A stretch of DNA of 32,000 bases from Xylanibacter ruminicola 23 (lineage in GTDB: Bacteria; Bacteroidota; Bacteroidia; Bacteroidales; Bacteroidaceae), in NCBI RefSeq assembly GCF_000025925.1, contig NC_014033.1, positions 1,200,001 to 1,232,000 of the forward strand, given 5' to 3'. A program made the position numbers and the translations under genes. Below, in pieces: positions 11,694 through 32,000 of this stretch (within the stretch, counting starts at the first letter, position 1; every line of letters starts with the position of its first letter). The notes under the pieces were generated by a model. That model was not told where the DNA came from and did no database searches. It saw only the letters and a program-made list of their open reading frames with translations.

Positions 11694-11701
11694 CAAAGAT
11701 A
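11694..11701 (-). promoter_or_regulatory. Candidate -7 box TATCTTTG for serC
   Basis: Plus-strand CAAAGATA reads TATCTTTG on the minus strand. It lies about 200 nt upstream of ATG 11494, so a long leader is implied. Confidence 0.35.
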
Positions 11702-11711
11702 CTGAATATTT

Positions 11712-11786: not shown

Positions 11787-11796
11787 TTAAAATAGC

Positions 11797-11804
11797 TATC
11801 TTTG
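11797..11804 (+). promoter_or_regulatory. Candidate -7 box TATCTTTG for the folK-like operon
   Basis: Exact match only 8 nt upstream of ATG 11813, which implies a very short or absent leader. Confidence 0.45.
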
Positions 11805-11812
11805 CAATCGTT

Positions 11813-14237: not shown

Positions 14238-14241
14238 GTAC

Positions 14242-14949: not shown

Positions 14950-14962
14950 TGTTCAATGTTCA
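14935..14962 (+). repeat. Heptamer array of 4 units, ATG-orientation on + (TGA-orientation for the minus-strand genes), between the OmpA-family gene stop and mtgA
   Basis: ATGGTCA ATTGTCA ATGTTCA ATGTTCA. The stop of the upstream gene (14964..14966) abuts it. Confidence 0.9.
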
Positions 14963-14963
14963 A

Positions 14964-15644
14964 TTATTTAGAAGCTTCAGCATTAGCATCCTTAATCATC
15001 TGCTCCGAAGCGTACATGTAAACCTCAACGCGACGGTTCTGCTTGCGGCCCTCGGCTGTGCTGTTGTCAGCAACTGGGTTGGTAGAACCCTGACCGTCAA
15101 CCGACTTAATCTGTGAAGCAGGAACACCCAGCGACTTCAGATAGTTAGATACGCTCTTAGCTCGGTTAACCGACAAAGGATTGTTGATAGCATCGCTACC
15201 AGTATTGTCGGTGTGACCGTAGATAGCAACGTCGCAAGCGCTGTTGTTCTTCAGTACGGTAGCAAACTGCTGCAGTGAGCTCTTTGACGAGGCATTCAGG
15301 TCAGCCTTGTTAGTAGCAAACAGAATACCCGAATCAAATGTAACCTTAACAGCCTCAAGTCCGTTAGCGTCGGTGATAGTCTCAACCTGAGCGTTCTTAA
15401 CGGCCTCAGCCTCCTTCTTAGCCTTGTCCATCTTCTTACCGATGATTGCACCAGTACCAGCACCTACAGCACCACCGATAGCGGCACCAACAGCTGTGTT
15501 ACCAGCAATCTTGCCAATAATAGCACCCAGGGCAGCACCGCCACCAGCACCAATCATTGTACCCTTAGCTGTGTTACTCATGTTACATCCAGCCAGCACC
15601 ATCGAAGCGCACAGTGCTACGGCAATTGATTTCATACTTTTCAT
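14964..15644 (-). CDS. OmpA-family lipoprotein with glycine-zipper region
   Basis: Start moved to ATG 15644 (MKSMKSIAVALCASMVLAGC, lipobox LAGC) because the promoter box at 15692..15699 lies inside the longer track ORF. Glycine zipper GAGGGAALGAIIGKIAGNTAVGAAIGGAVGAGTGAIIG. OmpA-like C-terminus IYGHTDNTGSDAINNPLSVNRA...NRRVEVY. Confidence 0.85.
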   Translation of the reverse strand: MKSMKSIAVALCASMVLAGCNMSNTAKGTMIGAGGGAALGAIIGKIAGNTAVGAAIGGAVGAGTGAIIGKKMDKAKKEAEAVKNAQVETITDANGLEAVKVTFDSGILFATNKADLNASSKSSLQQFATVLKNNSACDVAIYGHTDNTGSDAINNPLSVNRAKSVSNYLKSLGVPASQIKSVDGQGSTNPVADNSTAEGRKQNRRVEVYMYASEQMIKDANAEASK

Positions 15645-15691
15645 ACTCGTTCTAAATTTGTTAATTAATCGTTTACTATTGTTTCTGCCTG

Positions 15692-15699
15692 CAAAGATA
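15692..15699 (-). promoter_or_regulatory. Candidate -7 box TATCTTTG for the OmpA-family gene
   Basis: Plus-strand CAAAGATA, 48 nt upstream of ATG 15644. Confidence 0.5.
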
Positions 15700-15789
15700 G
15701 TACATTTTTTTAAAGCGAGTATCATTAAATCGATAATTTTTTGTATTTTTGTTCCGATTAATGATTTTTATGTAGAGAGATGCAGGATT

Positions 15790-16857
15790 TTACTCAGCAG
15801 TCGATTTCAGACTAAAGCAGAATGGCTTGTTATAGTGGCGCTGCGAATAATAGGTAACCGAAGGGTGCTTCAGGTTCATCACCATGGTCCAGGCTGTGCC
15901 CAGGAACCCTTCGCGCTGTGGTTGCGATACCGATGCAATCGCGTTTGTAAGCTGTTCCATGTTCATCACACCGTTGTTTTCGGCATATCGCTCGCATAGC
16001 ATGTCGTAACGCTTATCGCCAGGCTCCAAACCCGCATTCAGTTTCTGCTCGCACAGATAGTGGTTAGCCACAGCAGGCGATTCTACCACCACCATTTTAT
16101 TGTCCACATACTCCACTACTACCCTTTTGCCCGTAGCATCGGCCATCGCATAGTGGTGAGCCGAACCTATGTCCGAGTGCATATCTATCCCCTCCAGCAG
16201 TTTTAGCGCCTCGTCAACGGTAGCAGCATTTTTCAGCATATAAGGTATGGCAGCCGTTGTGGTCAGGTCGGGTTTGCTGGTGTTCTGGTGCGTCTGCACA
16301 GTGTCGCCAGCCATCAGGTCGGCAATGGCCAGTCCCTTCTCGTTAATACCGTCCAGCGCCACAAATAGTCCTGTAAGCGCCATATACTGATTCTTAAATC
16401 CCTCGGGTTTATAGTTCTCGCCAAAGTTGTAGAACTCCACGTTAAAGGTGGTAATTGTTTCGTAGCCTTTGTCGGGGATGCAATGCATTATCACGCCAAT
16501 GGCCGATGTGAAATCAAAGTTGCGCCCCATCAGAATGTCGCCCTCAGGCGTGTTTACGGTCAGTGCCGAGCATCCGTATGTCTGCTTCGATGTACTGATT
16601 TCGGGCTTGTAATGACCCTTCGACAGGAATTCGATGGCATATCCGGCCAGCTCGTCGGCTTTAGCTATGCCACCCTTGGCCATCAGTCCGTCAAACCCGT
16701 CGTCGCCCTTGTACTCCATGTAGTACAATCCGTCGTCCAGTTTCACACACGAGTTTGCACCTTTAACCAGATGGCCGAACTCCAACCACACGGCAATTCC
16801 CAGTAATACAACCAATCCCATGACGCTGAATAGCGCAATTTTCAATACTTTCTTCAT
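15790..16857 (-). CDS. Ntn-hydrolase, C45 / choloylglycine-hydrolase-like linear amide C-N hydrolase, membrane-anchored or secreted
   Basis: The track start is a TTG (16887). ATG 16857 gives MKKVLKIALFSVMGLVVLLGIAV. Putative nucleophile context TYGCSALTV followed by GRNFDF. Confidence 0.65.
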   Translation of the reverse strand: MKKVLKIALFSVMGLVVLLGIAVWLEFGHLVKGANSCVKLDDGLYYMEYKGDDGFDGLMAKGGIAKADELAGYAIEFLSKGHYKPEISTSKQTYGCSALTVNTPEGDILMGRNFDFTSAIGVIMHCIPDKGYETITTFNVEFYNFGENYKPEGFKNQYMALTGLFVALDGINEKGLAIADLMAGDTVQTHQNTSKPDLTTTAAIPYMLKNAATVDEALKLLEGIDMHSDIGSAHHYAMADATGKRVVVEYVDNKMVVVESPAVANHYLCEQKLNAGLEPGDKRYDMLCERYAENNGVMNMEQLTNAIASVSQPQREGFLGTAWTMVMNLKHPSVTYYSQRHYNKPFCFSLKSTAE

Positions 16858-16904
16858 TAGTTTATAGTTTATAATTAACGTTTTCAAATTTATGTTTGAT
16901 GCTG

Positions 16905-16912
16905 CAAAGATA
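16905..16912 (-). promoter_or_regulatory. Candidate -7 box TATCTTTG for the hydrolase gene
   Basis: Plus-strand CAAAGATA, 48 nt upstream of ATG 16857. Confidence 0.5.
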
Positions 16913-16970
16913 CAAAAAAGTTTCTTCTAACTTGCTTTTTTTGAAAGAATTATGTAAAAAATGCATATAA

Positions 16971-17000
16971 CTTACGGAGACATTATGACATCTCCGTAAG
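16971..17000. terminator. Hairpin at the core/accessory boundary
   Basis: CTTACGGAGA-(10 nt)-TCTCCGTAAG, a perfect 10-bp stem. T-run on the right and A-run on the left. Flanked by the outer inverted pair ATGCATA (16961..16967) and TATGCAT (17011..17017). Confidence 0.5.
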
Positions 17001-17009
17001 TTTTTCTTT

Positions 17010-17480
17010 TTATGCATTAATAAAGTTCACTTTGCGTCGATTACTGAATGGACGTACCGCAAAGTGCAGCCAGATGGCACCGTAGCGGTTCTTCTCAATC
17101 AGTAGCTCGTCGAAGTCCTGATGGCTCTCATCCGCATAATCCAGCAGTATATTTGCATAGCGTATTAATTGCTCTGTGCCCAACACCCGGATATCAACGG
17201 CGCACCCCGTAAGGTGGTTACTGCCAGCTACTCCGCCAACCTTTTTATTTAACTGCGGACTGCGATACCCCGAGTTTATATGGATGGGCTCCTCGCCTAC
17301 TCCATATTTCTCATTATACCGCTTCCTTAACTCTTCCAGCCAAACACACAATCGCTTCATATTTGCAATCGCCTCATGACTTGGGATATTATACACTTCA
17401 GGATACTTGCTCCTGGTGAACTCCCCGAGCACAAAATGCTCGGAGAGGTTTGCTTTACTATTTAACTGTACTATTTCCAT
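17010..17480 (-). CDS. Peptidase M15A-type (D-Ala-D-Ala carboxypeptidase fold) metallohydrolase
   Basis: 156 aa. SGYRSPQLNKKVGGVAGSNHLTGCAVDI followed by WLHFAV supplies the H...D...H zinc-ligand pattern of M15A/phage cell-wall hydrolases. Confidence 0.72.
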   Translation of the reverse strand: MEIVQLNSKANLSEHFVLGEFTRSKYPEVYNIPSHEAIANMKRLCVWLEELRKRYNEKYGVGEEPIHINSGYRSPQLNKKVGGVAGSNHLTGCAVDIRVLGTEQLIRYANILLDYADESHQDFDELLIEKNRYGAIWLHFAVRPFSNRRKVNFINA

Positions 17481-17498
17481 ATTTACATTTTCTCATTT

Positions 17499-19841
17499 TT
17501 AATTTTTACATTTTTCCTTGTATTTATCGCTCTTTTTGTAACTGTAATCTGTAATCTGTAATACATACTTTCTGAATACCCACTGATGTATCATTCTGGC
17601 ACACTTGCGCTTATCAGTTTGCAGACCTTGTTTAGCACGTGCCTGCATTGCATCATTAAGCGTAAACTCATCGGGCAGCAAATCTAACAGATTCTTAGGA
17701 CCGGGCTGCTCTCTATATTCACCTTCATGGTTTGCCTTTTCAATATCAGCACCGAAGAACTGCATTTTGCACCATAGATCGTACTGCAGGCTCCAACGGA
17801 CAAAATCTTCAATCGTCTTTTCCCATTGGCAGCCGTTGGCTACGTACAGCACACAAGCCTTTAACCAGGCTATTACGATGGCACGATGCGACAGGTTCCA
17901 ATACGTTTCGTCCTGCGACAATCGGGCAAATTCTGCACACTCCTCCTGTAGCTTTTTAGCCAGTTTGAATGCCTGCGGACAATCCACCACACCATGAGCC
18001 GACACAAGGTTGTCGATATACGTTTTCAGTTCAGCATCAAATGCCTCGTCGTATTTGCCGTAGATGGGCTGCTCAGCACCAATCTCCATCTCTGGGATGG
18101 TACAGAAGTTGATACGGCTGATAGGACCATCGGTGAGAACACGACTGAAAAAACGACGACCTTTTTGGATGGTAGTACAGGCGTTCCAGTTGAACCTACA
18201 CTTTGGTCTTGCTGTTACACTCTGGGTACCGATACGTGTTTGTCCGAACTCAGCACCTGGATCGAAAGCCAAGCACATCAGTTGGAAATGCTGCTTGCCA
18301 GTCTGACCTTTCAATTGTTCAAACAAATCAATCTCGTTCAGCTTTACATACACAAAGTGGCCCTCGGCTTCGTCCATACGGGTAACCAATGCAGGCTTAG
18401 TCATATCGGGATCAATCTCTTGTATCACCAGTCCTTCGGGGCGTACCTGCTTATCCTTATTAGCACCCTTCTTTTGACAGTCCTTTTTCCACTCAGCCTC
18501 ACGTCGGGTATTCTCGGCATCGCGGGCTTTGATATCGGCCATAATATGACGGATAGGCTCATCTATACAGCCTTTACCTGCGCCCGTATGCGCCATCAGA
18601 CAGTTCATCAGCGTGGCCTCATGCTTCACGTAATCCGTGTACTCAAATTCCACCTCTTTCAGATGTGTGCCAAGCGATGGAAACACCGCATGCGCCACCG
18701 CAGCTTTGTATTGGTTGGGGGTATTCTTGGTAAGTAGTTTAATCAGTTTCGGTAGCTTTGCTGGCATCTCAGGAGGAATAGGAGCAGAACGATCACTCAC
18801 TTCTGCTTCTTTATCATCCCCCAGTCTCCTACTCTTCGTAAATATCGCCTCCTCGTCCTTATTCAGTTTTCGTTCAGGATTGTAATACTTGGCATAAAAA
18901 TCACTCAGGCATTTCTGTACATTCTCATCAGCCCAATGTTCAGGCATCAGTTCAGCCAATGCCCCGTTTGCCTCCTCCTTACTTAGCAACTGGTTACAGC
19001 CACTCAGGAATATCTTCACCGCATTATGCCTACCGCCAATATCCGTAAAGTCCGACTTCTCCAGCCCCTTAGCCTTCAAAACCGCCTCCATCACAAACCT
19101 CACCCTCTCATCGACTGGTGTGACTGGGGACTGGTCCCTGTCGCAGGATGTGACTGGGCCCTGTCCCTTGTCACGCCCCATCGCGCGGTCATCCGTTGCT
19201 AAATCATCTTCCCACGGCTTATAGTGCTTCCTCGCCTTTTTAGCCCCAGCCGGCACCTGCTCTTCACCTTTGCGCTCACGGTCTTTCAATCGGGCATATT
19301 CCGCCTCGCACTCCTCAACCGTCATGGGTTCATCAAACAGCTCGTCATCAAGATAAAGTAAATCTTTTTCATTACCACTTGTTGAGTAAACCACCCTTTG
19401 CAAATCATGCACATTGGTGTCCATCTCAATCTGCAGAATAGTAGCAATACGCACTTGATTCTCGAGAATAGTAGTACCAGGCTGGCGTTTACAAACCAAA
19501 TGATATCCTCCACTCGCACTCTTCTCCAGCATCATCAGGCCTATCTCATCCTTCTTAGCCAGTACCTGCTGCGCCATTGCTGCACTCTGTTCGGCATCGT
19601 AGCAATCCACATCGTGGAAAAAGTAGCTGCCGATACTCTTGCAACCAGCCAAAGCCGAGCTTTTCAGTACACCGATATTGTAGGCGAACTGCACCAACTG
19701 GGCCTTAGCTTTCTCGTCGCCTTTGCGCGCTTTAGCTAAGTTCTCCAGATTCTCTTTGGTGTTTCTGAGCGCCAAGAAATCTTCACGATTCTTTACCAGA
19801 TAAGCAAACTTCTTACCCTTATTTACTATGCGGTAAATCAT
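17499..19841 (-). CDS. Mobile-element replication protein: N-terminal archaeo-eukaryotic-primase (AEP, BT4734/VirE-N-like) domain fused to a large C-terminal domain
   Basis: 780 aa. AEP motif I FFHDVDCYD (DxD), motif II SASGGYHLVCK (sGGxH), then EMDTNVHD. Low-complexity linker DRAMGRDKGQGPVTSCDRDQSPVTPVD. The C-terminal half has a degenerate P-loop-like HTGAGKGC. Confidence 0.62.
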   Translation of the reverse strand: MIYRIVNKGKKFAYLVKNREDFLALRNTKENLENLAKARKGDEKAKAQLVQFAYNIGVLKSSALAGCKSIGSYFFHDVDCYDAEQSAAMAQQVLAKKDEIGLMMLEKSASGGYHLVCKRQPGTTILENQVRIATILQIEMDTNVHDLQRVVYSTSGNEKDLLYLDDELFDEPMTVEECEAEYARLKDRERKGEEQVPAGAKKARKHYKPWEDDLATDDRAMGRDKGQGPVTSCDRDQSPVTPVDERVRFVMEAVLKAKGLEKSDFTDIGGRHNAVKIFLSGCNQLLSKEEANGALAELMPEHWADENVQKCLSDFYAKYYNPERKLNKDEEAIFTKSRRLGDDKEAEVSDRSAPIPPEMPAKLPKLIKLLTKNTPNQYKAAVAHAVFPSLGTHLKEVEFEYTDYVKHEATLMNCLMAHTGAGKGCIDEPIRHIMADIKARDAENTRREAEWKKDCQKKGANKDKQVRPEGLVIQEIDPDMTKPALVTRMDEAEGHFVYVKLNEIDLFEQLKGQTGKQHFQLMCLAFDPGAEFGQTRIGTQSVTARPKCRFNWNACTTIQKGRRFFSRVLTDGPISRINFCTIPEMEIGAEQPIYGKYDEAFDAELKTYIDNLVSAHGVVDCPQAFKLAKKLQEECAEFARLSQDETYWNLSHRAIVIAWLKACVLYVANGCQWEKTIEDFVRWSLQYDLWCKMQFFGADIEKANHEGEYREQPGPKNLLDLLPDEFTLNDAMQARAKQGLQTDKRKCARMIHQWVFRKYVLQITDYSYKKSDKYKEKCKN

Positions 19842-20209
19842 TTACTAAATCCTTTCTTTTGCAGGTGTTTAATGATTGGGCAAATACCCTTTCGCAGGAT
19901 GGTGGGCAACTGGGCGCGCAGTTCGTTAGGAACCACAAAAGTTACACGATCATTACCATCTGCACCAAACGACAAACTGGCGTAACCACCTTTAAATTCA
20001 GGTTTATGGCGCAATCGCTTGGTACGAGTAAACTCAAACGATCCATTGCTAAGCAACCGGCCTAAGCCTCGCCCGCAAAATGCGTCTGTTTGTCCTATAC
20101 TCGGATTATCTGGCAAAAACTGCACATAATCCATTTCCAAATCACTCTTTGTAACGGCCATCATGCCGTTAACAGTTACGGTCTTGTTTAATTTGTTATT
20201 TGTTTTCAT
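19838..20209 (-). CDS. Hypothetical protein (123 aa), translationally coupled to the primase gene
   Basis: ATG start. ATGA overlap with the downstream gene. No recognisable motif. Confidence 0.55.
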   Translation of the reverse strand: MKTNNKLNKTVTVNGMMAVTKSDLEMDYVQFLPDNPSIGQTDAFCGRGLGRLLSNGSFEFTRTKRLRHKPEFKGGYASLSFGADGNDRVTFVVPNELRAQLPTILRKGICPIIKHLQKKGFSK

Positions 20210-23402: not shown

Positions 23403-23819
23403 ATGAATAATATGAAGGTTGAAGCAATTGTGGAAAGAACAGACAATGGTTATTACTCCATTGCATGCGATGCCCAGATTGGAAACTTCTGTTTGGGTGG
23501 GTATGGAAACAGTGTTGACGAAGCCAAAGCCGACATGGCAGCTATCGTGAAGGAAGCTCAGGAAGAATACGTGAAAGAACACGGCAGTCTTCCCAAGAAT
23601 CTTCAGGAAATCAAGATTGAGTACAAATACGATCTACAGTCCTTTTTCAATTACTTCGAATGGATTAACATCAGCAAATTTGCCAAGTTTGCAGGTATCA
23701 ACGAAAGTAAAATGCGCCAATACAAGATAGGTGCTGCCTATGCAGGCGAAAAGACCAAAGAAAAAATCTTGGTAGCCATCCAAAAAATGAGCGCAGATCT
23801 AGCTGCCGTTTCATTATAG
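23403..23819 (+). CDS. HicB-like (UPF0150-fold) N-terminal domain fused to a C-terminal HTH-like segment
   Basis: 138 aa. KVEAIVERTDNGYYSIACDAQIGNFCLGGYGNSVDEAKADMAAIVKE resembles HicB-family antitoxin N-domains. The C-terminal ISKFAKFAGINESKMRQYKIG looks like an HTH. It is the only plus-strand gene in the island. Confidence 0.5.
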   Translation: MNNMKVEAIVERTDNGYYSIACDAQIGNFCLGGYGNSVDEAKADMAAIVKEAQEEYVKEHGSLPKNLQEIKIEYKYDLQSFFNYFEWINISKFAKFAGINESKMRQYKIGAAYAGEKTKEKILVAIQKMSADLAAVSL

Positions 23820-23828: not shown

Positions 23829-23855
23829 AATGTGGTCGCAATTTGCGACCACATT
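23829..23855. terminator. Bidirectional rho-independent terminator between convergent genes
   Basis: AATGTGGTCGCA-ATT-TGCGACCACATT, a perfect 12-bp stem. AAAATAA on the left and TATTTT on the right. Confidence 0.75.
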
Positions 23856-23892: not shown

Positions 23893-24147
23893 TCATGAAT
23901 CTTTTTTTCTTTGTGACCTAGCCTTCCTTATCTTTCTCAACTTTCTAGAATCTTCATGCGCCACATACACAACATAAGCAAAAAGAATCAGGATAACCGC
24001 AACAATAAGAAGCGACCACCATTTGAATACATAAATAATAACATATATTGCAAGCAAGACAAGAATTACCCTGCCTATTGTAGTGTTAAACAGCAACCAT
24101 AAATAAGGAAAAGCACCCATAATTATTCTATTTTTGTTTACCAACAT
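23893..24147 (-). CDS. Small multi-TM membrane protein with basic C-terminal tail (84 aa from ATG 24147)
   Basis: MLVNKNRIIMGAFPYLWLLFNTTIGRVILVLLAIYVIIYVFKWWSLLIVAVILILFAYVVYVAHEDSRKLRKIRKARSQRKKDS. ATG 24147 shares one base with the TAA of the upstream gene (TAATG). The longer track ORF (to 24180) overlaps that gene by 34 nt. Confidence 0.6.
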   Translation of the reverse strand: MLVNKNRIIMGAFPYLWLLFNTTIGRVILVLLAIYVIIYVFKWWSLLIVAVILILFAYVVYVAHEDSRKLRKIRKARSQRKKDS

Positions 24148-24686
24148 TATGCCACAAGAATGATAGCTGCTAGAGCACAAAGATTAACAGCTGTATCCTT
24201 GTTATTCCAGAAACCATCCGTTAGCTTATGCTCTATAATGTAGTCTCGCAACTTCAGACGCCATTCTTTGTTTTGCAGCAATATCCACAGAGCCTCATCA
24301 AAATAGGCATAATCTACACTTTCTTTCAACCATGCCTTTGATGGAGTACGCCCTTTACAGAGTCGTTCACCCTGATAGTTCAAATGCCAGAACCCATCAG
24401 ATTCCAAATGCCAGAATGGTTTTTCAATACCAGTTAGATTGTCAAACTGAGATTCCTTAGCATATTTCGACATCAACATTTTATATCGTCCTTCGAGCCA
24501 ATCGTTTATTGCAAACTGATTATTCCGGAACACATTAGCCTCAACACCATCAATAATTGCCAGCAACAGGACAGGCTTAGCCACAATAATCTCACCATGA
24601 ATCTTAGCCTGTCTAATACTCATTATCTGCTTTGTGTAATGCTTAAAGCATTGCTCATAGCTAAAAAAGCTTATAACCCTATTCAT
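24147..24686 (-). CDS. Stand-alone domain protein with KPVLLLAIIDG ... PFWHLESDGFWHL signature (possible modified-DNA-reading domain as in COG3183/ScoMcrA-type enzymes)
   Basis: 179 aa. ATG start with its own TAACTTTG box. The motif assignment is from memory of N-terminal domains of HNH type IV restriction enzymes. No nuclease motif is present. Confidence 0.6.
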   Translation of the reverse strand: MNRVISFFSYEQCFKHYTKQIMSIRQAKIHGEIIVAKPVLLLAIIDGVEANVFRNNQFAINDWLEGRYKMLMSKYAKESQFDNLTGIEKPFWHLESDGFWHLNYQGERLCKGRTPSKAWLKESVDYAYFDEALWILLQNKEWRLKLRDYIIEHKLTDGFWNNKDTAVNLCALAAIILVA

Positions 24687-24755: not shown

Positions 24756-25334
24756 TTAAATTTCTTCAGGTTCATCGTCATCAGACCCACCAGTCAAATC
24801 TTCTTTCTTATCAACAGCAAATGAGAGAAAAGTATCAAGAAGAGAAGAATTTCGAGAAAGCCAATTCGAATCTTCCTCTAGCTTTTCGTGAATATAATCA
24901 AACCCAAAATTTGCATACTCTTCCATTTTCTTCTTCAATTCAGCAACAGCCCGTTGGACAGTCAGTTCGCCTTTGTCCAAAGCTATAAAATCTATGTTCG
25001 TGCGAGCTAACAATGCGATAAACATATAATATCGAAGCTGGGGATAAGCCTTTCGCATCTTTCGATTCTCAATGTTTCCCCAATACATTATTGGTTGACC
25101 AAGTCCTTTTCGCTTAATCGGATCAGGATTTAACGGTTTTGGGTTGTCTGCATATAATCCAATGAAGAATGCAACGATGTACAACTCGTAGCCAGCTCCA
25201 AGAATTTTAGCTTTTGACTCAGTATACTCGTTATAGCCTTTGCCATAGTCACAATATTGACGTAATAACGGTTCGAATCTAACCTCGAAATCTGGGTTCT
25301 TTTTTGCCCATAGATCATATAAAGTCTCTGCCAT
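24756..25334 (-). CDS. Hypothetical protein with acidic tail (192 aa), last gene of the defence operon
   Basis: ATG start 2 nt after the ATPase stop. C-terminus GGSDDDEPEEI. It may correspond to a dnd-associated small protein family, but I cannot verify this. Confidence 0.65.
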   Translation of the reverse strand: MAETLYDLWAKKNPDFEVRFEPLLRQYCDYGKGYNEYTESKAKILGAGYELYIVAFFIGLYADNPKPLNPDPIKRKGLGQPIMYWGNIENRKMRKAYPQLRYYMFIALLARTNIDFIALDKGELTVQRAVAELKKKMEEYANFGFDYIHEKLEEDSNWLSRNSSLLDTFLSFAVDKKEDLTGGSDDDEPEEI

Positions 25335-25336
25335 AA

Positions 25337-27496
25337 TTACTTAATTTTTGTAGTTCTTACTCTAATTGTAGAAAGATCGTTTTTGTTAAAGCCCACCCTA
25401 TCCTTTTCTATTCTATAGATTGGACATGAAAGAGAGTACGCAGCAGATTTGATATTGCTTTTTTGGGTAGCCGCATCAAATTCTAACATATCTTTGGTTA
25501 CAATAACACACTGTTTCTGGATTTTATTGATTATTTCGTAGAATTCTGTTTCCTTCATTTGTCCAAATGAAGATGTAGGCGCATCAAAGATCAGTGGATA
25601 TTCAGTTTCTCTTTTCTCTGCAGTAACTTTAGCTATAGCAAAGAGGACCGCCATATACATCGTTGTCTTTTGCGACTCAGACGGACTGGTCACTATAGTA
25701 CCATTTTCACTCCTGAGCACAACATCTATACTTTCAGTTTCCTGACTGCGCATCATTTCAATGATTCCATGGAAATCGTTACCACTTAGTTCTGCTAAAT
25801 ACTTGTTAGAGAGTGTTTTGAGGTGAGAAATAAAATTCTTACGATTGGTCTCGCGTGCAGAAACAAAAGCCTTATAGATATGATCAAAGATATTGTGTAT
25901 ACGCCCAAGTCTGGTTACTTCCTTGTTACCAGTATCCAAAGAAGACAACTCACTCTCAGTTTCTTCCTTCTCTTTACGTAGACCTTCAAGTATCACACGC
26001 AATTCTCCTAATCTTTGCTGGGCAGACTCATGCCTATTCATAAAATCGCGGACATCCTTAGCAGAACGATTAATATCTTCCTCCGAAATGCCATTCAGTT
26101 GTGATAATGTCCGAGACTTCTCGTCCTTAGCATCATCAAGCGCTTGTTGCCATTTCTGCATTTCCTTGGTACGGTCAGCAATAAATTCCAATTCCTGTTG
26201 AATCGTATCGGTGCGATTAGCGACAGAACGTTCTTTTGGACCGCCATAACTTATACTGAGGTGCTGTAATTCTTCAACATAATTGAATTTAAAAATATCC
26301 TCATCCTCAGTCTTCTGTTGTTTCTGTCTATTTTTTAACGCTTCTTGAAGTTTTTGAACCATAAATTCATATGCTTCTGAACCTTTGGGAGCTGGTCTTC
26401 CGCAAACTTTACAACATTCATCATCAATCATTTCCACCAAATATTCTTCATTTGGAACGAACCATGGAAGTTTTGTTTTACCTTCAGGAAGAGCCAAAGC
26501 AGCCAATTGCTGTTGTTTACCTTTTTCAATTAAATATTCGTCATGTTGTTTACGACGCTCTTTACTGAATAAAGAAACTTTTTTCTTGAATTCCTCAAAA
26601 ATCTTTGGATAAGCACACAATATCCACTGATTATCTAATAGAGAAGTATTAAAGTCTACATTAGTATAGCTCCTCATTCTTCTGACTTTCTCCTCGTAGT
26701 CCTTTATTCTCTCATTGATAGAATCAAGCTTTTCTTTAATTTCACGATTGTCAACCATTTTATCGAGTTTACCCTTATAGACTCGAGAGTTCTCTTCTTG
26801 ATCTTTAATTTGCCGACGTGTATCTGAGATTTCACTCTCAATTCTATTAAGTACATGTTCTAAACGCTGAGCCTCCTGTGCCGTTTTCTTATCTTTCTTC
26901 AACTCGTTTGAATGAGCCTTACTTGCTTGTTCTTTTAAACTAAGAGTTAGTTCAGCAAACTTGTCAAGTCGAGTTATATCTGAGAAGGTTCTTAGTAATC
27001 GCTTTAATGCTTCAGTATCTTCGTGGAAAATATCAAGTTGAGTTTCGCCTTTAAACATACTGTATCTACGAATCTCTGCATCAAAGCACGAATTAAGTAT
27101 CTGTCGACCATCAATTTGCTCACGTTCGATACCATTGAAACGGTAACCATAGAATTCTCTTGACACAATTTCAACCGCGTTAGCATCGGTCTTTCTAAAG
27201 GAAAAAGCTTTCGTCAATTCCTTTTCGCCCTCATGATCAAATTTAATTGTAACACGAACTTCATCTTCATCGCCTACAATCATTTGAGACTTACGCATCT
27301 CCGATATATTGAAGATTTCATCCTTCTCACGTAATCCCGTTGTATCAAACAGCCATTCTAAGGCTTCGAAGAAAGTGGTTTTACCATCTCCATTGTCTCC
27401 GATAATTAATGTGAGTCCTGTTGGATTAAACTCAAATCGATTCTCATTTCCATAGTAACTGCGAAAGTTACGTATTTCAAGTTCTTTTAAAATCAT
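25337..27496 (-). CDS. SMC/Rad50/DndD-like ABC-type ATPase with long coiled coil and central CxxC
   Basis: 719 aa. N-terminus ILKELEIRNFRSY. Walker A GDNGDGKTT. Several hundred residues of K/E/Q/R-rich heptad-like sequence contain CCKVCGRP. Signature-like SESQKTTMYMAVLFAI. Walker B YPLIFDAPTSSF. Confidence 0.85.
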   Translation of the reverse strand: MILKELEIRNFRSYYGNENRFEFNPTGLTLIIGDNGDGKTTFFEALEWLFDTTGLREKDEIFNISEMRKSQMIVGDEDEVRVTIKFDHEGEKELTKAFSFRKTDANAVEIVSREFYGYRFNGIEREQIDGRQILNSCFDAEIRRYSMFKGETQLDIFHEDTEALKRLLRTFSDITRLDKFAELTLSLKEQASKAHSNELKKDKKTAQEAQRLEHVLNRIESEISDTRRQIKDQEENSRVYKGKLDKMVDNREIKEKLDSINERIKDYEEKVRRMRSYTNVDFNTSLLDNQWILCAYPKIFEEFKKKVSLFSKERRKQHDEYLIEKGKQQQLAALALPEGKTKLPWFVPNEEYLVEMIDDECCKVCGRPAPKGSEAYEFMVQKLQEALKNRQKQQKTEDEDIFKFNYVEELQHLSISYGGPKERSVANRTDTIQQELEFIADRTKEMQKWQQALDDAKDEKSRTLSQLNGISEEDINRSAKDVRDFMNRHESAQQRLGELRVILEGLRKEKEETESELSSLDTGNKEVTRLGRIHNIFDHIYKAFVSARETNRKNFISHLKTLSNKYLAELSGNDFHGIIEMMRSQETESIDVVLRSENGTIVTSPSESQKTTMYMAVLFAIAKVTAEKRETEYPLIFDAPTSSFGQMKETEFYEIINKIQKQCVIVTKDMLEFDAATQKSNIKSAAYSLSCPIYRIEKDRVGFNKNDLSTIRVRTTKIK

Positions 27497-27501
27497 AACC
27501 G

Positions 27502-27720
27502 TCAGCTTAAATGATTACACACTTCTCTATAAATGTCCCTGTCAGACACATTAGATGATTGCCTTTCAATAATACGACCAACAGCACTTACAACTTCATT
27601 ATCTGACTCTATTGCATCATCAACGGTCAGATAATCGTCTGGGTCATATTCGCCATACTTACAAAGTATAGGTTCTTTCAAAACTGCTTGAAGTAATTTG
27701 TCTTTTGCTCTATATTCCAT
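27502..27720 (-). CDS. Small acidic protein (72 aa)
   Basis: ATG start 5 nt after the helicase stop, with a stop 5 nt before the ATPase start. Acidic stretch YDPDDYLTVDDAIESDNE. Confidence 0.55.
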   Translation of the reverse strand: MEYRAKDKLLQAVLKEPILCKYGEYDPDDYLTVDDAIESDNEVVSAVGRIIERQSSNVSDRDIYREVCNHLS

Positions 27721-27725
27721 AGACG

Positions 27726-30002
27726 TTAAAATATTGGTAAATTATAATATGTCAAAATATCTTCTAATTCTTTTACTGTATCACTGCTATTCTGTGAAAG
27801 ATTAGCAAACTCACGAACCCTTTTCATCTCGTTGTTCAAAAGATTGCGTTCCATTTTGTAAGAAGACATAGCGTAATCAATCTTAGGCGCAACTACCAGA
27901 TCATGGATAATCGCATACTTCTTATCTTCATGAGTACGCAATATTCGTCCTCTACGTTGGATAAACTGTCTTGGGTTTCCTGTACTAGCACAGAATATCG
28001 CCATCTCGCTACGAGGCACATCAACACCTTCGTCCAAACATTTCATTGATGTCAAGACATCTAATTGTCCTTTCGAAAATTTTTCGAGTATCCCGTCTCT
28101 ATTAGCTGTTTCACTTGTGAACTGCATGACAGTTGTATGAGGGTCAACCTCTGCTACAATACGAGTATATTCATCAATAAGGTGCTGAGTTTCAACATCA
28201 TCACTTATTGTGTCTTGACTATCGCTGTCATTATCAAAGTACTCCGCAGGCTCATTACCTTCAGGGACATAAATGAGAGAATATTTCAAAGAGCCATTAG
28301 TTTTTATTCTATCTTTCAATATGTCGTAAAATACAGTCTTCTTTCCAGATGCTTTATGAATAATACGTTTTCTCTTCAACAATAGCGACATAAGTATGTC
28401 ATCTTTTTTAAATCGGTCACTATCAACTAAATAATACTTTGCCAACTTAACGGAAAGTTCATTGTATTCTTGCATCTCTTCAGAATTGAGATATACTACA
28501 TGAGGATAATAATAGTATTGACACAGCTTACCTTCCTGTATAGCTTGCTGCATAGTATATTCAAAGGTATAATCTTCTTTTATACCAAAAAAATCGTTAA
28601 TCGCATTATTTCCAGCATCATCAAACTGCCTTTGTGGTGTAGCAGATAAACCAATCCTTCTACCATAAGGTATGTATGGTAATCTTACTTTTATCTTACC
28701 CGCCCCAATATTGTGACACTCGTCTGCTATAAATAGAACCTTTTTTCTTGGGAGTTGCGTCAGAATTGTAAAAACATTATCTCGCGCAAATGAGGCATAT
28801 GTAGAAATTATGATATAATTAAGTTTGTTATCATCATTAATTTTCTCTTGCAAAATGATGTTGTCAAGTGATTTCTTCCAAGAAACATTTTTTGAGTAAA
28901 CCTTTATTATGCTATCGAAGTGAAACTTTTTACATTCGACAGCCCATTGGTCAACAAGAACGGTAGTTGGTACAAGTATTATTGCTTTATAACAACCAGC
29001 TTTTCCTTTATATATATTAAGAAGACAATTCAAAGAAGTTATTGTCTTACCAGTACCAGTAGCCATTGCAAATAGACCTTTCTGCTTATTTGCAACCCAT
29101 TTTTCAAAGGCTTTATTTTGGTATTCATGTGGACCTGTGACATAGGGGAACGCAGGCAAATCCTGATCTTCCTCACTATGATTATATTTCTCCTTAATTA
29201 AGGAAATAACGTTGTTAACTTTTTCCCGGGTACGTTTTAATGCATACGCAACATTGTTATTGATGGGATATTCTTTCTTTTCTTTTCGAATTATTTCTTC
29301 TTCCTCTTCGAGAAGCTCTTCTATCTCTTTCTTTCTGAAGCAATTTTGTATATTACTCCTAATTTTGGATGCATCAACATATACGTAATTAGGATTCTGC
29401 TCAGCAAAAGCGGTTTGAAATAATTCTTTATTGTGCCGAACCCTATTCTCTGCAACACTACCATCCCAATCACAGTCTATAGATATACTTTCAATATTTT
29501 CAATAAGTGCATTCCGAGAGAAATTACATGATCCATTAAAGCAAATGGAATTGTAGGCATCGCTAAACACTCCTTGCTTAGGATGTGATATGCCAACACT
29601 GTCTCGAGGACGGATGATTTTAATTTCCAATCTATTTTCCTGTATTAGAAAAGACAGGCAATCATAAAAATGCCGATTTCTCTTTGAAAGTGTATTTTTA
29701 ATTTTCTCCAAATTGTCTATATCAAAGAAATCAAGAACACTTCCTTCTTTTCCTTTAGCTATAAAATCCTTATCTGCTTGCGTAAGTACATCATTGATGA
29801 TAAGACGCATTTTCCCTCCATGATATAAGAACAAAGCAAAACCATCAGCCAAAACTTCTATGGCAGAAGAGGAGAAAAAGCCTAACATCAAATCAAACGA
29901 TGTAGCATTGCACAGACATTCTGAAAAGAAACCTACCGGTTCCCACTCTGTTCTGGAATCAAATTGCCTGTGACTTGGCCATATTACATCATTCTTCAGC
30001 AT
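27726..30002 (-). CDS. PLD-family (single HKD) nuclease domain fused to an SF2 DEAD/DEAH-box (ResIII-type) helicase
   Basis: HKD-like GISHPKQGVFSD...FNGSCNFS in the N-terminal third. Helicase motif I MATGTGKT, motif II FIADECHN, motif III GLSATPQR and motif VI QFIQRRGRILR. The track start (30035) is a GTG overlapping the upstream gene by 22 nt. ATG 30002 (MLKNDVIW...) is preferred. Confidence 0.9.
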   Translation of the reverse strand: MLKNDVIWPSHRQFDSRTEWEPVGFFSECLCNATSFDLMLGFFSSSAIEVLADGFALFLYHGGKMRLIINDVLTQADKDFIAKGKEGSVLDFFDIDNLEKIKNTLSKRNRHFYDCLSFLIQENRLEIKIIRPRDSVGISHPKQGVFSDAYNSICFNGSCNFSRNALIENIESISIDCDWDGSVAENRVRHNKELFQTAFAEQNPNYVYVDASKIRSNIQNCFRKKEIEELLEEEEEIIRKEKKEYPINNNVAYALKRTREKVNNVISLIKEKYNHSEEDQDLPAFPYVTGPHEYQNKAFEKWVANKQKGLFAMATGTGKTITSLNCLLNIYKGKAGCYKAIILVPTTVLVDQWAVECKKFHFDSIIKVYSKNVSWKKSLDNIILQEKINDDNKLNYIIISTYASFARDNVFTILTQLPRKKVLFIADECHNIGAGKIKVRLPYIPYGRRIGLSATPQRQFDDAGNNAINDFFGIKEDYTFEYTMQQAIQEGKLCQYYYYPHVVYLNSEEMQEYNELSVKLAKYYLVDSDRFKKDDILMSLLLKRKRIIHKASGKKTVFYDILKDRIKTNGSLKYSLIYVPEGNEPAEYFDNDSDSQDTISDDVETQHLIDEYTRIVAEVDPHTTVMQFTSETANRDGILEKFSKGQLDVLTSMKCLDEGVDVPRSEMAIFCASTGNPRQFIQRRGRILRTHEDKKYAIIHDLVVAPKIDYAMSSYKMERNLLNNEMKRVREFANLSQNSSDTVKELEDILTYYNLPIF

Positions 30003-30013
30003 TGGCGATTTCT

Positions 30014-31117
30014 TTATATAAAACAGTTCGTACACATGATATCATCACCAAGGATCTCGGCAAGGGTTGTACCCTTGTTGTTTGCTCGGCTTTCTTTTTG
30101 GCGACGGATGATGTCGAGTTTTATCTGGCGGATACGTTCTGGTTTAATGAGGTCGGCTAAACTCTCATTCTGATTCCACGTGTATCCATCTTTTTCAAAC
30201 TCCATCGCTTTCTTAAAGAGGTCGGGATGTTGCTCATAGAGCCATATCCATTCTATCTTCTGCTGGAAGAAACAGAAGTAACAACCAGAACGACTGCGGC
30301 AATAGGTTCCCGTTTCGCCATCTACTTCGAAAGGTATTTCCTCGTAATAGGCAGGTACTCCTACTCCACTTTCTCTCAGTAATCTGAAAATATCGTCCTT
30401 TACCAATATGTCGGTATTATCAAGCAGGGGGAACTCATCCAGTTTCCCCACTGGGTAATCAGTTGTCTTAAGAAACTCGAACACCGCATGATTAAACAAC
30501 TTAACGTCGTAATCAAGTAATGCATTCATTTTCTTAGAATAAAAGAACTGCTTGGTAATCGGTTTCTTTACCGTATCCATAATCTCTTCCTTGAGGAACC
30601 CTTCTGGACAAAGACGCTCGTATATTTCCGTTATCTGTTCCAGGTTCTCATTGTGCAAGAACTTGTTGATGACGTCAATGCTCCATATATTTTTACGGAA
30701 TGGGAATACAGCTTGGATATTGGGCTTAGAAGAGATATAACCATCACGATCCTCATCGCCTCGAATACCAACATACGAAACTGCATAATCGTCACCAACG
30801 TATTCCTCGAACTTATCGAGTTTCATCTTTTTGGTACACCAACGAGCCTGGGGAGAAGGTAAGAAACCACCCATAGCTTTTAAGAAATGGTGGAATGGTG
30901 TTGGCTCAGGACTACCCTCGGCAGCTCTCAGTCTTTCAATCTTACCCAAATAGGCCTCCAGGCGATTAATCAGCGTTTCGGTTTCAGCCAACTCACAACC
31001 GGTATCTGAATTATAGTACTCAATCTTTAATGATGGGTACGTCTTTTTCAGATAGATGGCGAGAGCAGCACTATCCTTACCACCTGAAATTCCTAATATA
31101 TGTCTTACTTTTGTCAT
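30014..31117 (-). CDS. PAPS-reductase-fold PP-loop ATP pyrophosphatase (DndC/SspD-like)
   Basis: 367 aa. N-terminal PP-loop GISGGKDSAALA. C-terminal cysteine cluster YCRSRSGCYFCFF plus terminal MCTNCFI. ATGA overlap with the upstream gene. Confidence 0.82.
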   Translation of the reverse strand: MTKVRHILGISGGKDSAALAIYLKKTYPSLKIEYYNSDTGCELAETETLINRLEAYLGKIERLRAAEGSPEPTPFHHFLKAMGGFLPSPQARWCTKKMKLDKFEEYVGDDYAVSYVGIRGDEDRDGYISSKPNIQAVFPFRKNIWSIDVINKFLHNENLEQITEIYERLCPEGFLKEEIMDTVKKPITKQFFYSKKMNALLDYDVKLFNHAVFEFLKTTDYPVGKLDEFPLLDNTDILVKDDIFRLLRESGVGVPAYYEEIPFEVDGETGTYCRSRSGCYFCFFQQKIEWIWLYEQHPDLFKKAMEFEKDGYTWNQNESLADLIKPERIRQIKLDIIRRQKESRANNKGTTLAEILGDDIMCTNCFI

Positions 31118-32000
31118 TTCATTTTTTTACTTAATATCGACAGTAATGTACATACGTCGACGTTATTATCACCTGAAAGCAACTGATTGATTTTCTTCTC
31201 CAAATCAGCAGCCTTCGATTTATCTTTCTCTGGTAGAACATAGGTCTGAGTACGAACACTACTACCTTTGCTAGTTACCATATCGAATGAATATGCCTCA
31301 TTCTGTTCTTTATCGCCAACCTTCTTTGATATATCGGAATATTTCTCGCATTCGCGTAATAGATATACCAAATCATCAGCTAATTTATCTTCTTGTTCAT
31401 CACGCAATGCATCAAGTCGCTGTTCGAGAATGGTATAGCAGATTGACTGGTACCACTCAGTGCGATTATCATACTCTGTCATTACATGGTGATAGAACTC
31501 ACGTTGCTTACCTGTCAACAGATAGTCTTTAACATTGGCCAGTCGCTCACGTACTTCAACTATATATTCAGAATATTCATAACTCTGTAAGCCAAAACCT
31601 TCCACAAGTCTCGCTTCAATACGATCTATTAACTGAGTGTAGCATGTACGCAGTTCCTTTATGGCTCGCTGAATGATTCTTCCATACTCGTTAATAAACT
31701 CTTCTTGTTTCAATATTTCCTGAGTAAAGCCTAATGCATCAGGCAGATCTTCAAAGAAAGCCTTTTCTGGATCCTTAGCATTTGCAAGTACATCACGGAA
31801 TCTCATTGTTGACTCATGATCGAATTTACGAGTATGTTTGGTATATTCGTTCAAACGAACATAGAAACTCAAGAACGGCTTGATTGTCTCAATAAAATTC
31901 GAATTTGTAATAGCATGCTCGTCACCAAGATTAATGAATCGGCGATATTGGTTGAAGAAGCCCATCTTCATACCATCTACAGCAAACTTCTTAACTGCAA
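31114..32000 (-). CDS. Unassigned helical protein: either 285 aa from ATG 31971 or the C-terminal part of a larger protein
   Basis: The frame stays open from 31971 to the window edge (..AVKKFAVDG-MKMGFF..). The stop overlaps the next start (ATGA). No catalytic motif recognised. Confidence 0.65.
   Translation of the reverse strand, partial: AVKKFAVDGMKMGFFNQYRRFINLGDEHAITNSNFIETIKPFLSFYVRLNEYTKHTRKFDHESTMRFRDVLANAKDPEKAFFEDLPDALGFTQEILKQEEFINEYGRIIQRAIKELRTCYTQLIDRIEARLVEGFGLQSYEYSEYIVEVRERLANVKDYLLTGKQREFYHHVMTEYDNRTEWYQSICYTILEQRLDALRDEQEDKLADDLVYLLRECEKYSDISKKVGDKEQNEAYSFDMVTSKGSSVRTQTYVLPEKDKSKAADLEKKINQLLSGDNNVDVCTLLSILSKKMK

Follow-up and report, generated by a model that had tools for sequence, protein, structure and literature searches.

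A predicted phosphorothioate restriction-modification locus in Xylanibacter ruminicola 23 pairing SspBCD with a PbeABCD-like cassette

Results

Organization of the locus

Six consecutive minus-strand ORFs extend from position 24756 to the end of the window, the 32,000-nucleotide stretch of X. ruminicola 23 DNA analyzed. All coordinates and junctions (from -4 to +11 nt) reported for these ORFs in a preliminary description of the same DNA were reproduced on recomputation. sspC and sspD overlap (-4 nt, ATGA at 31114/31117), sspD and pbeA are +11 nt apart (counted from the pbeA ATG at 30002), the gene for a 72-aa protein is spaced by +5 nt from both pbeA and the following ATPase gene, and the latter by +2 nt from the gene for a 192-aa protein. 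The motifs formerly described in the PP-loop, PLD/SF2 and ATPase proteins are likewise all present. The first ORF, sspC, runs open to the edge of the window and is therefore truncated, and the 5' end of the operon lies, as proposed, beyond base 32000. Catalytic residues are invariant over 53-67 distinct orthologues per gene; the ORFs are therefore genes under selection, and not chance frames.

A seventh gene, encoding a stand-alone sulfur-binding domain (SBD) protein (24147..24686, minus strand), lies just outside the region originally delimited, and had been missed. Terminator-like sites were looked for, and none was located between pbeD and this gene. A bidirectional terminator-like hairpin with a 12-bp stem (23829..23855) probably marks where the minus-strand transcription unit ends. 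A small membrane-protein ORF of 75 aa (23893..24120, minus strand), located 26 nt after the SBD gene and ahead of the first terminator-like hairpin, is of uncertain operon membership; it is called as a gene in locus L005, and weakly matches phrog_6131, a family of unknown function.

The Ssp modification module

The sixth of the originally described ORFs (31114..32000, minus strand) is the C-terminus of SspC, and comprises the last ~295 codons of an ORC/Cdc6-type ATPase of 1074 aa; it matches the PADLOC SspC model PDLC02776 (2.6e-81) at profile positions 778-1038 of 1039. Extension past base 32000 in the parent contig (L001, 100% identical to the window), which the preliminary description had suggested, recovered full-length SspC (1074 aa; PADLOC SspC E=0, 1301 bits) and, immediately upstream of sspC, SspB (DUF4007, PF13182; PADLOC SspB 4e-89), a DUF4007 protein formerly considered missing.

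sspD (30014..31117, minus strand) encodes a 367-aa PP-loop sulfurtransferase of the PAPS-reductase fold, with SGGKDS at residues 11-16 and a Cys cluster made up by C273/C279/C282 plus C362/C365. SGGKDS and C279/C282/C362/C365 are invariant in 53 SspD orthologues. The enzyme had been described as of the DndC/SspD type. Its assignment to SspD stands because the SspD-specific PADLOC model matches (2e-86), matches to DndC (2.8e-06) and BrxP (1.8e-05) being weak; the Pfam PAPS_reduct model gave no match at E<=0.01. The SspD model counts 277 positions vs the 367 aa found here, and the match is split in two stretches.

No gene for the cysteine desulfurase SspA was found in the window or in 10 kb of upstream sequence of the parent contig. 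Its lack had been correctly noticed, and is not anomalous: it is normal for ssp loci, housekeeping IscS/SufS being accepted as substitutes (PMC12914056), and E. coli sspBCDE similarly lacks sspA. A class-V aminotransferase (10427..11494) was rejected as SspA; it adjoins a SerA-like 2-hydroxyacid dehydrogenase, resides 13 kb away among housekeeping genes, and is probably SerC.

The eight proteins scanned, from the operon and its flanks, gave no match to any SspE, SspF, SspG or SspH model, and the earlier statement that DUF262/DUF1524 proteins are missing holds true for SspE in the same set. According to the literature, 83.9% of 2,678 sspBCD loci feature neither sspE nor sspFGH, and further restriction partners have been predicted (PMC8092258).

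PbeA and the protein in the PbeB position

The product of pbeA (27726..30002, minus strand), a protein of 758 aa, combines one HKD nuclease motif of the PLD type with an SF2 helicase in a single chain. It matches PADLOC PDLC02706 over its full length (E=0, 1051 bits), a phospholipase-D antiphage model (2.6e-17), Pfam ResIII (9e-24) and Helicase_C (1e-11) and, weakly, PLDc_2. The score on TIGR04095 (400.7 bits) is under the 600-bit cut-off of that model. The earlier placement in the 'DNA phosphorothioation system restriction enzyme' family was right, the protein being PbeA. The nuclease motif consists of HPK (140-142), D148 and GSCN (157-160), the helicase core of GTGKT (316), DECH (427), SAT (453) and QRRGRILR (682). 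Across 60 orthologues there is no variation in H140, K142, D148, GSxN or helicase motifs I, II, III and VI.

The gene in the pbeB position (27502..27720, minus strand) encodes a 72-aa acidic protein (pI 4.5) matching no family in PADLOC, Pfam, NCBIfam or PHROGs. It is among the fastest-evolving proteins of the operon, showing in more distant loci 31-49% identity vs 47-60% for PbeA; the median pI of proteins encoded in this position is 4.5 (57 orthologues). Where the gene lies, how small and acidic its product is and how fast it diverges agree with PbeB, but no homology was detectable when the alignment of the Bacteroidales 72-aa proteins was compared with PbeB from plasmids (seven proteins; hhalign E 0.28). 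In the founding system PbeB and PbeD measure 66 and 152 aa (PMC6459918); they were later reinterpreted as a small rapidly evolving protein and a DndE cognate, respectively (PMC10853773).

A small, acidic, fast-evolving protein next to a nuclease with strictly conserved HKD residues would fit an abortive-infection or suicide effector, a model proposed for CxC-centred systems (PMC10853773): PbeB would restrain the HKD nuclease until removed by a phage factor, and freed PbeA would attack both host and phage DNA, phosphorothioate (PT) or the SBD protein merely modulating the process. We regard this as quite unlikely at the present locus, given the tight linkage of the cassette with a self-marking module, a hallmark of self/non-self restriction; triggering by a phage factor finds no direct support in the computed results.

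The coiled-coil ATPase and its zinc hook

The pbeC-like gene (25337..27496, minus strand) encodes a coiled-coil ABC ATPase of 719 aa, whose centre carries the zinc-hook motif CKVCG. The DndD relationship formerly proposed holds. The protein matches PADLOC LmuB (1.3e-26) and PbeC (4.4e-23) and Pfam AAA_15, AAA_23 and SMC_N. The motifs are GDNGDGKT (33), CKVC (362), SESQ (606) and LIFDAP (635); none of 67 orthologues departs from Walker A (33-40), C362/C365 or Walker B D638. Identity to plasmid PbeC is about 23-25%, in the N-terminal half. The hook reads C-x-x-C (CKVCG) in 67/67 Bacteroidales orthologues vs C-I/V-C-G in 7/7 canonical PbeC proteins. The hook regions of the ATPase and of the seven PbeC proteins align, with one extra residue in the Bacteroidales version; judged from this alignment, the CKVCG hook is a one-residue variant of the homologous CxC hook.

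LmuB being the best ATPase match, a Lamassu system was considered, and rejected on gene context and on the hook-region homology to PbeC. PbeC models give the ATPase no higher score than the Lamassu LmuB models do.

The protein in the PbeD position

The last gene of the cassette (24756..25334, minus strand) encodes an acidic protein of 192 aa. The PbeB, PbeD and DndE models of PADLOC, searched at E<=5, miss both this protein and the 72-aa one, along with their variants; matches of the 192-aa family in Pfam, NCBIfam and PHROGs are noise only, and its profile found just one spurious match (E=0.17) among PDB sequences. When compared by hhalign with seven PbeD proteins, a set including 'DNA phosphorothioation-associated protein 4', the family aligned over 98 columns (E 3.6e-4, probability 37%), with a shared EEYAN(G/F)G motif. 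The AF2 model (pLDDT 84, pTM 0.81) features the topology strand-helix-(long loop)-helix, strand-helix-long helix, then a C-terminal helix. The model has only two strands (15-17 and 75-77), which must pair together. The predicted topology is RHH-like and fits what is described for PbeD as a DndE cognate, namely a pair of ribbon-helix-helix units whose second helix is long, plus a helix at the C-terminus. Foldseek searches of the PDB gave nothing below E=2.8, and no link to solved DndE, TraY or Arc. The protein is probably a divergent DndE cognate.

A stand-alone sulfur-binding domain protein

The SBD protein (179 aa) has a hydrophobic C-terminal tail and lacks a nuclease domain. Its profile matches 8h0l, the SBD of Hga, at 8.7e-12, and the protein matches NF045808 at 9e-7. 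The structural model has a pLDDT of only 64; its top 14 Foldseek matches in the PDB are all SBDs of Hga, ScoMcrA or SprMcrA (probability 0.89-1.00). The sulfur cavity of Hga is formed by H25, K26, L75, P76 and H79 (PMC10602919). Of these, K26, P76 and H79 correspond in the alignment to K37, P90 and H93 of the SBD protein, which do not vary; A36 replaces H25, and K89 replaces L75. RecA matches of the profile were discarded as inflated by tandem-fusion chains (single RecA, E 0.37).

The best 120 relatives listed are all 158-185 aa long; the published SBD survey dropped sequences <200 aa (PMC10602919). Family members inspected are each encoded directly 3' of an ssp-pbe operon. The gene is found in a minority of ssp-pbe loci, and is therefore not essential to the general mechanism.

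The SBDs of ScoMcrA, SprMcrA and Hga (PDB 5zmo, 7ccd, 8h0l) share with the protein described here fold, profile homology, the central Pro and the cavity Lys and His. Unlike them, this SBD is free-standing, accompanied by neither HNH nor PD-(D/E)XK domains, and is encoded next to a writer in a host predicted to write PT. Characterized SBDs all belong to PT-dependent restriction enzymes (PMC10602919, PMC6224610), and the SBD might by analogy direct the nuclease-helicase at PT-modified invading DNA, as in a type IV-like system. This is extremely improbable: with a PT writer in the same operon the host genome itself would be the target, and the SBD, nuclease-less here, is absent from most ssp-pbe loci.

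Recurrence of the arrangement and cassette swapping

When the PbeD family was used as search query, 59 species-level genomes with enough upstream flank were obtained, almost all Bacteroidales; in 52 of them sspD, pbeA and pbeC are colinear with the PbeD-family gene, and pbeA directly abuts sspD in 35 of these 52. Cultured carriers include X. ruminicola 23, Tannerella forsythia ATCC 43037, Alloprevotella tannerae ATCC 51259, Segatella copri G8 and Segatella bryantii DSM 11371. Gene identities, gene order, the conservation of catalytic residues and the recurrence of the arrangement are directly established.

The sspBCD-pbeABCD pairing was also found on two alphaproteobacterial plasmids. In the Sphingomonadaceae plasmid CP099618.1 the ssp-pbe gene order is identical, with sspA in front; in the Rhizobium indigoferae plasmid NZ_CP140639.1 the arrangement is convergent, and PbeD is annotated 'DNA phosphorothioation-associated protein 4'. 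Both plasmids differ from the locus described here: their hook is CxC, their PbeD measures 148-157 aa, a cysteine desulfurase is encoded next to the operon, and an SBD gene is missing.

The pbe cassettes that follow near-identical ssp genes (SspB 83-96%, SspC 88-99%, SspD 100% identity) encode proteins that are just 31-51% identical. One breakpoint of the swap coincides exactly with the stop codon of sspD, and the other precedes the start of the SBD gene by 9 nt. Because divergent pbe cassettes lie behind near-identical ssp genes, Pbe is not co-evolving with Ssp, and a specific functional coupling is harder to argue for. Exchange at precise breakpoints behind almost unchanged sspBCD may rather denote two autonomous systems in one operon, SspBCD being an orphan epigenetic or redox PT writer, and the Pbe-like cassette a self-contained entity that does not read PT. 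In line with this, dndCD are not nearby for 320/553 PbeAC pairs, similarities of DndCD and PbeAC correlate poorly (0.107; PMC6459918), and CxC-centred systems exist without PT genes (PMC10853773). We nevertheless deem such independence unlikely, given the 11-nt spacing, the colinearity in 52/59 genomes and in a second phylum, the tracking of the operon by a predicted PT-reading SBD gene, and the PT dependence of PbeABCD in the sole system tested, where the block of virus replication requires PT modification (PMC6459918).

Discussion

The locus likely represents a composite PT restriction-modification system of Xylanibacter (Prevotella) ruminicola 23, formed by an SspBCD writer, a PbeABCD-like cassette and an SBD reader; phosphorothioation and defence are functions predicted from gene content. 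The general assignment to a PT modification-plus-restriction type, already put forward in the preliminary description, is supported by the identities of SspD, PbeA and the DndD-related ATPase. The view, in that description, of a set matching no canonical order proved untenable. The operon is two canonical modules end to end, sspBCD followed by pbeA-B-C-D, and looked non-canonical because of the window edge and because PbeABCD had not been taken into account. The nuclease-helicase, far from being wedged between other genes, is the first gene of the cassette after sspD, and the 72-aa and 192-aa proteins, supposedly extra, stand in the places of PbeB and PbeD. An undescribed variant is tenable only in a narrower sense: both modules were already known, and the claim is confined to the pairing of Ssp with Pbe, the CxxC hook and the stand-alone SBD. 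In our literature search the pairing is named in no searchable paper, an earlier mention elsewhere being possible, and neither PT in X. ruminicola nor stand-alone SBDs were found.

The sspB-sspC-sspD order, with strong model matches, is that of SspABCD-SspE and SspABCD-SspFGH systems of Vibrio cyclitrophicus FF75 and E. coli (PMC8092258), in which SspE (DUF262/DUF1524) or SspFGH are the partners; here a Pbe-like cassette is found instead. The four-gene order of the cassette (HKD plus SF2 helicase, small protein, coiled-coil Zn-hook ABC ATPase, small DNA-binding protein) is the same as in DndCDEA-PbeABCD of Haloterrigena jeotgali A29 (PMC6459918), corresponding to the CxC ABC-ATPase-centred system (PMC10853773). 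PbeA is a clear orthologue, the hook region of the ATPase is homologous, and the EEYANxG motif is common to PbeD. In contrast, the PT writer is Ssp here (ORC/Cdc6-type SspC plus SspB) and DndCDE in Haloterrigena, the hook is CxxC, the 192-aa PbeD is missed by library models, and PbeB homology is undetectable. Overall, the CKVCG hook, the very divergent PbeD, the nuclease-less SBD and the swapped pbe cassette set the locus apart from described systems. A Dnd system was rejected, as DndC models match at 1e-6 only and neither DndD nor DndE were detected. BREX type 4 (BrxP/C/Z/L) was also rejected: BrxP, an SspD-SspB fusion, matches only at 1.8e-05 over the PP-loop region, and BrxZ and BrxL gave no matches.

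In the composite system, SspB (DUF4007), SspC (ATPase) and SspD (PP-loop sulfurtransferase) would write single-strand PT on host DNA, taking sulfur from a housekeeping cysteine desulfurase encoded elsewhere. The PT motif is expected to be of the CpsC type, by analogy with ssp-positive gut isolates (sspBCD in all except 2, sspE being present or absent), which contain CpsC (PMC12914056). A dimeric Zn-hook ABC ATPase (PbeC-like) and a PbeD/DndE-like DNA-binding partner may scan DNA, the HKD-SF2 enzyme PbeA translocating on PT-lacking DNA and then nicking, cleaving or stalling, under regulation of the complex by the small acidic PbeB-like protein. The SBD protein would be a PT reader that binds host PT sites, and most likely helps the Pbe cassette to distinguish marked self from unmarked DNA. 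From the genes observed we infer PT synthesis and its motif, the PT dependence of restriction, the way in which DNA is damaged and the part played by the SBD. That cleavage of viral DNA by PbeABCD was not seen in the founding study (PMC6459918) counts against the proposed mechanism, as do the lack of a nearby cysteine desulfurase, the LmuB-level ATPase scores, the CxxC hook, the undetectable PbeB homology and a PbeD without match to solved DndE structures.

How PbeABCD senses PT and arrests phages is an open question in the literature (PMC6459918, PMC10853773, PMC12707154). A rather doubtful idea is that the SBD could be the missing PT sensor of a distinct Ssp-Pbe type, reading SspBCD marks and licensing or restraining interchangeable cassettes. 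This would explain why the SBD stays 83-92% identical beside near-identical ssp genes while pbe is replaced wholesale and, if true, would provide the first mechanistic handle on PT sensing by Pbe-type modules.

The Pbe-like cassette is the standard SspBCD partner across gut, rumen and oral Bacteroidales; about 84% of sspBCD loci known so far lack a recognized restriction partner (PMC8092258). The ssp-pbe locus offers a tractable type strain, a natural series of cassettes swapped behind one writer, and a candidate stand-alone PT reader. The locus may also be a practical barrier, to be weighed when transforming bacteria of the Prevotella group.

The ssp-pbe operon and its setting

All six minus-strand ORFs of the preliminary description were recovered, and their tight spacing was reproduced (junctions of -4, +11, +5, +5 and +2 nt). 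The first ORF stays open as far as base 32000; its gene is therefore truncated by the edge of the window and the operon starts past it, as proposed. The missing 5' end is supplied by contig BPTT01000001.1 (GCA_019973335.1), 100% identical to the window across 11,987 nt, in which SspB and a full-length SspC (1074 aa; E=0, 1301 bits) are encoded directly upstream of the 367-aa gene. SspB, located upstream of sspC and of the window, is the 294-aa DUF4007 protein (PADLOC SspB, 4e-89) that had been reported missing. The exact proteins are recorded under Xylanibacter (Prevotella) ruminicola, strain 23 included (ADE81303.1, ADE83765.1, ADE82836.1).

Within the window, the SspC C-terminus (31114..32000, minus strand as all genes of the operon; 2.6e-81) is followed by SspD (30014..31117; 2e-86), which matches DndC and BrxP models only at 1e-5 to 1e-6 and Pfam PAPS_reduct not at all, and by PbeA (27726..30002; E=0, 1051 bits over the full length, with ResIII and Helicase_C matches). 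A 72-aa protein (27502..27720) occupies the PbeB position between pbeA and the gene of a coiled-coil ABC ATPase (25337..27496; PbeC 4e-23, LmuB 1e-26), and a 192-aa protein (24756..25334) the PbeD position after the latter; neither small protein had a match in any family library searched. The motifs initially read were all located: SGGKDS and a C-terminal Cys cluster in the 367-aa SspD; HPK...D...GSCN, GTGKT, DECH, SAT and QRRGRILR in PbeA; GDNGDGKT, CKVC, SESQ and LIFDAP in the ATPase. PbeA scores 400.7 bits against TIGR04095, below the 600-bit cut-off of the model, which is probably why NCBI labels it as a mere 'DEAD/DEAH box helicase'.

PbeABCD has the same four-gene order; in the founding system (PMC6459918), PbeB has 66 aa and PbeD 152 aa. 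The four products have since been reread (PMC10853773) as an enzyme of HKD+SF2 type, a small protein that evolves rapidly, an ABC ATPase with a 'CxC' Zn hook, and a cognate of DndE. The SspBCD models and this order define the operon as sspB-sspC-sspD / pbeA-pbeB-pbeC-pbeD; the gene order, first taken as non-canonical, is thus canonical within each module.

The G+C content of the operon region is 35-43%, vs. 44-53% in the housekeeping part of the window. Housekeeping chromosome spans 1..20000, and includes carB (2754..6038), tRNA-Ser(CGA) (6874..6962), DUF1015, SerA-like, SerC-like, M64 peptidase and SpoU methylase genes, and an endolysin-like gene (17010..17480). From about 20 kb on the G+C content falls, and several ORFs without family match precede the defence operon. 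On the other side, about 2 kb upstream of sspB in the parent contig L001, lies the gene of a 477-aa AlbA_2 (Schlafen-like)/HATPase_c_4 protein (2580..4013), with weak matches to pAgo-associated and CARF-type models; its vicinity suggests a wider defence island.

Recurrence of the ssp-pbe pairing

Relatives of the 192-aa protein, used as query against one genome per species, were found in 227 genomes. Among the 80 loci listed, sspD, pbeA and pbeC are colinear in 52 of the 59 with at least 6.5 kb of upstream DNA; pbeA directly follows sspD in 35 of these 52, and accessory genes (1.8-4.0 kb) reside between the two in the other 17. Inserts of this kind were mapped at L071 3506..5304, L048 3526..5324, L023 1306..5308 and L015 2142..5298. 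The insert scanned in T. forsythia ATCC 43037 encodes a DndB-family and a 180-aa protein, and A. tannerae ATCC 51259 has ORFs nearly identical to these; other inserts scanned code for an HATPase_c protein of 730 aa and for an AAA protein weakly similar to BrxC/D.

The pairing was also detected on alphaproteobacterial plasmids, distinguished by an adjacent cysteine desulfurase and a canonical CxC hook. In the Sphingomonadaceae plasmid CP099618.1, cysteine desulfurase, DUF4007, SspC and PAPS reductase genes are colinear with those for PbeA, a 74-aa protein, the ATPase and a 148-aa protein; in the Rhizobium indigoferae plasmid NZ_CP140639.1 the two modules are convergent. A rival reading, in which ssp and pbe are independent systems that are co-located, has against it the colinear order on the plasmid of a second phylum and the colinearity counts.

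Exchange of the pbe cassette

An identical SspD is encoded by seven further contigs (L002-L008). L005 is identical throughout; SspC and SspB are 99% and 96% identical in L002-L004, L006 and L007, 88% and 83% in L008, and Pbe proteins only 31-51% identical in all six. At the nucleotide level, sspCD identity (96-99%) breaks off precisely with the stop codon of sspD (window 30013-30015), and identity of about 83% resumes 9 nt before the start of the gene for a sulfur-binding domain (SBD) protein (window 24695). Between flanks that are conserved, the pbe cassette has therefore been exchanged as a whole; the SBD gene, whose product is 83-92% identical in L002-L004, L006 and L007 (only a weak 34% tblastn match in L008), follows the writer, not the cassette. 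Extra genes in variant operons with the identical SspD code for a 167-aa protein ahead of pbeA, a second ABC ATPase (658 aa) and a protein of 853 aa in which no domains are clear, and a PbeD-position protein is lengthened to 381-382 aa (L002 11115..11618 and 16849..19410; L003 13156..15132; L004 11135..12283; L098 8728..9873).

The stand-alone SBD protein and the 3' flank

The SBD protein (179 aa; 24147..24686, minus strand) starts 69 nt past pbeD, and is a seventh gene overlooked in the preliminary description, just outside its coordinates. The family profile matches the Hga sulfur-binding domain (PDB 8h0l) at 8.7e-12, and the best 14 Foldseek matches are all SBDs (probability 0.89-1.00), the pLDDT of the model being only 64. 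Invariant K37, P90 and H93 align with K26, P76 and H79 of the Hga sulfur cavity (PMC10602919), cavity residues H25 and L75 being replaced by A36 and K89. The protein is devoid of a nuclease domain. Entries of less than 200 aa had been dropped from the published SBD survey (PMC10602919), and short stand-alone SBDs were consequently excluded there. Each family member inspected lies directly 3' of an ssp-pbe operon.

No terminator-like site was found in the pbeD-SBD interval. The 69-nt gap contains TAACTTTG, which matches the Bacteroidetes -7 consensus, though this match alone is not statistically meaningful. The final 15 or so residues of the SBD protein (AVNLCALAAIILVA) are hydrophobic, and the next ORF (75 aa; 23893..24120, minus strand) encodes about two transmembrane segments and ends in a basic tail; the hydrophobic end of the SBD protein and this neighbor would be compatible with membrane association. 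Next comes a bidirectional terminator-like hairpin with a perfect 12-bp stem (23829..23855), shared with a converging 138-aa gene (23403..23819). SBD residues 95-128 (34 residues; window 24303..24404) align with the E. coli RecA C-terminal domain; strong E-values come from tandem RecA fusion chains only, and as a single RecA gives 0.37, the similarity may be due to chance.

ATPase hook and small proteins

C-I/V-C-G is found at the midpoint of all seven canonical PbeC proteins, [I/V/C]-C-K-V-C-G-R in 67/67 Bacteroidales orthologues of the ATPase. The flanking sequences align between groups, indicating that the hook is homologous and one residue longer, Rad50-like CxxC in Bacteroidales, whereas the canonical PbeC clade has the eponymous CxC.

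Position and character alone link the 72-aa protein to PbeB. Its pI is acidic (4.5, also the median of 57 orthologues), and at more distant loci retains 31-49% identity where PbeA retains 47-60%; homology to plasmid PbeB proteins was not detectable.

The 192-aa family numbers 1130 relatives, almost all of them from Bacteroidales. It goes by the name 'glycoside hydrolase family 15' in several records of NCBI and UniRef, probably a propagated mis-annotation, since no glycoside-hydrolase similarity was detected. The AlphaFold model is confident (pLDDT 84, pTM 0.81), and begins with strand 15-17 and helix 18-27, which a long loop of low confidence connects to helix 49-62, then features strand 75-77, helices 99-111 and 116-121, long helix 126-154 and C-terminal helix 164-181. 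The two strands, being the sole ones, must pair together, and the predicted topology fits the double ribbon-helix-helix layout of clade-2 DndE (PMC10853773); invariant K74 and K76 flank or sit on the second strand. Foldseek gave no match in PDB. Seven PbeD proteins from annotated plasmids, two of these proteins bearing the name 'DNA phosphorothioation-associated protein 4', were compared with the family profile to profile: the alignment covers 98 columns at E 3.6e-4, and both sides have an EEYAN(G/F)G motif, located in the long helix. The 192-aa protein is likely, though not proven, to be the PbeD/DndE cognate.

Novelty and proposed mechanism

The ssp module, the pbe module and the SBD fold are each already known. 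A literature search of incomplete coverage found no paper naming the Ssp-Pbe pairing; the restriction branches named in a 2025 review are limited to dndFGH/sspFGH, sspE and pbeABCD, the last being discussed only beside dnd genes, and 83.9% of sspBCD loci were reported to lack a known partner (PMC8092258). As the pairing is visible to any PADLOC user, the claim is modest. What is genuinely new is that the pairing dominates among Bacteroidales arrangements, that a subclade has a CxxC hook, that the likely PbeD is highly divergent, that the SBD stands alone and that pbe cassettes are swapped.

Set beside the observed gene identities, operon structure, catalytic-residue conservation and recurrence, established family knowledge suggests a role for each component. 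SspBCD, with a housekeeping desulfurase, would introduce single-strand phosphorothioate (PT) into DNA; the motif is CpsCA in Vibrio, and CpsC was detected in gut isolates with ssp genes (PMC12914056). The ABC ATPase together with PbeD would scan DNA, and PbeA would act on unmarked DNA. The invariant HKD residues of PbeA argue for a catalytic nuclease, as proposed (PMC10853773); viral DNA cleavage by PbeABCD was not seen in the founding study (PMC6459918). Rival modes are abortive infection, and type IV-like targeting in which PT-DNA itself would be attacked. In the proposed mechanism, PbeB would regulate the complex, and the SBD protein, bound at host PT sites, would help in telling self from non-self.
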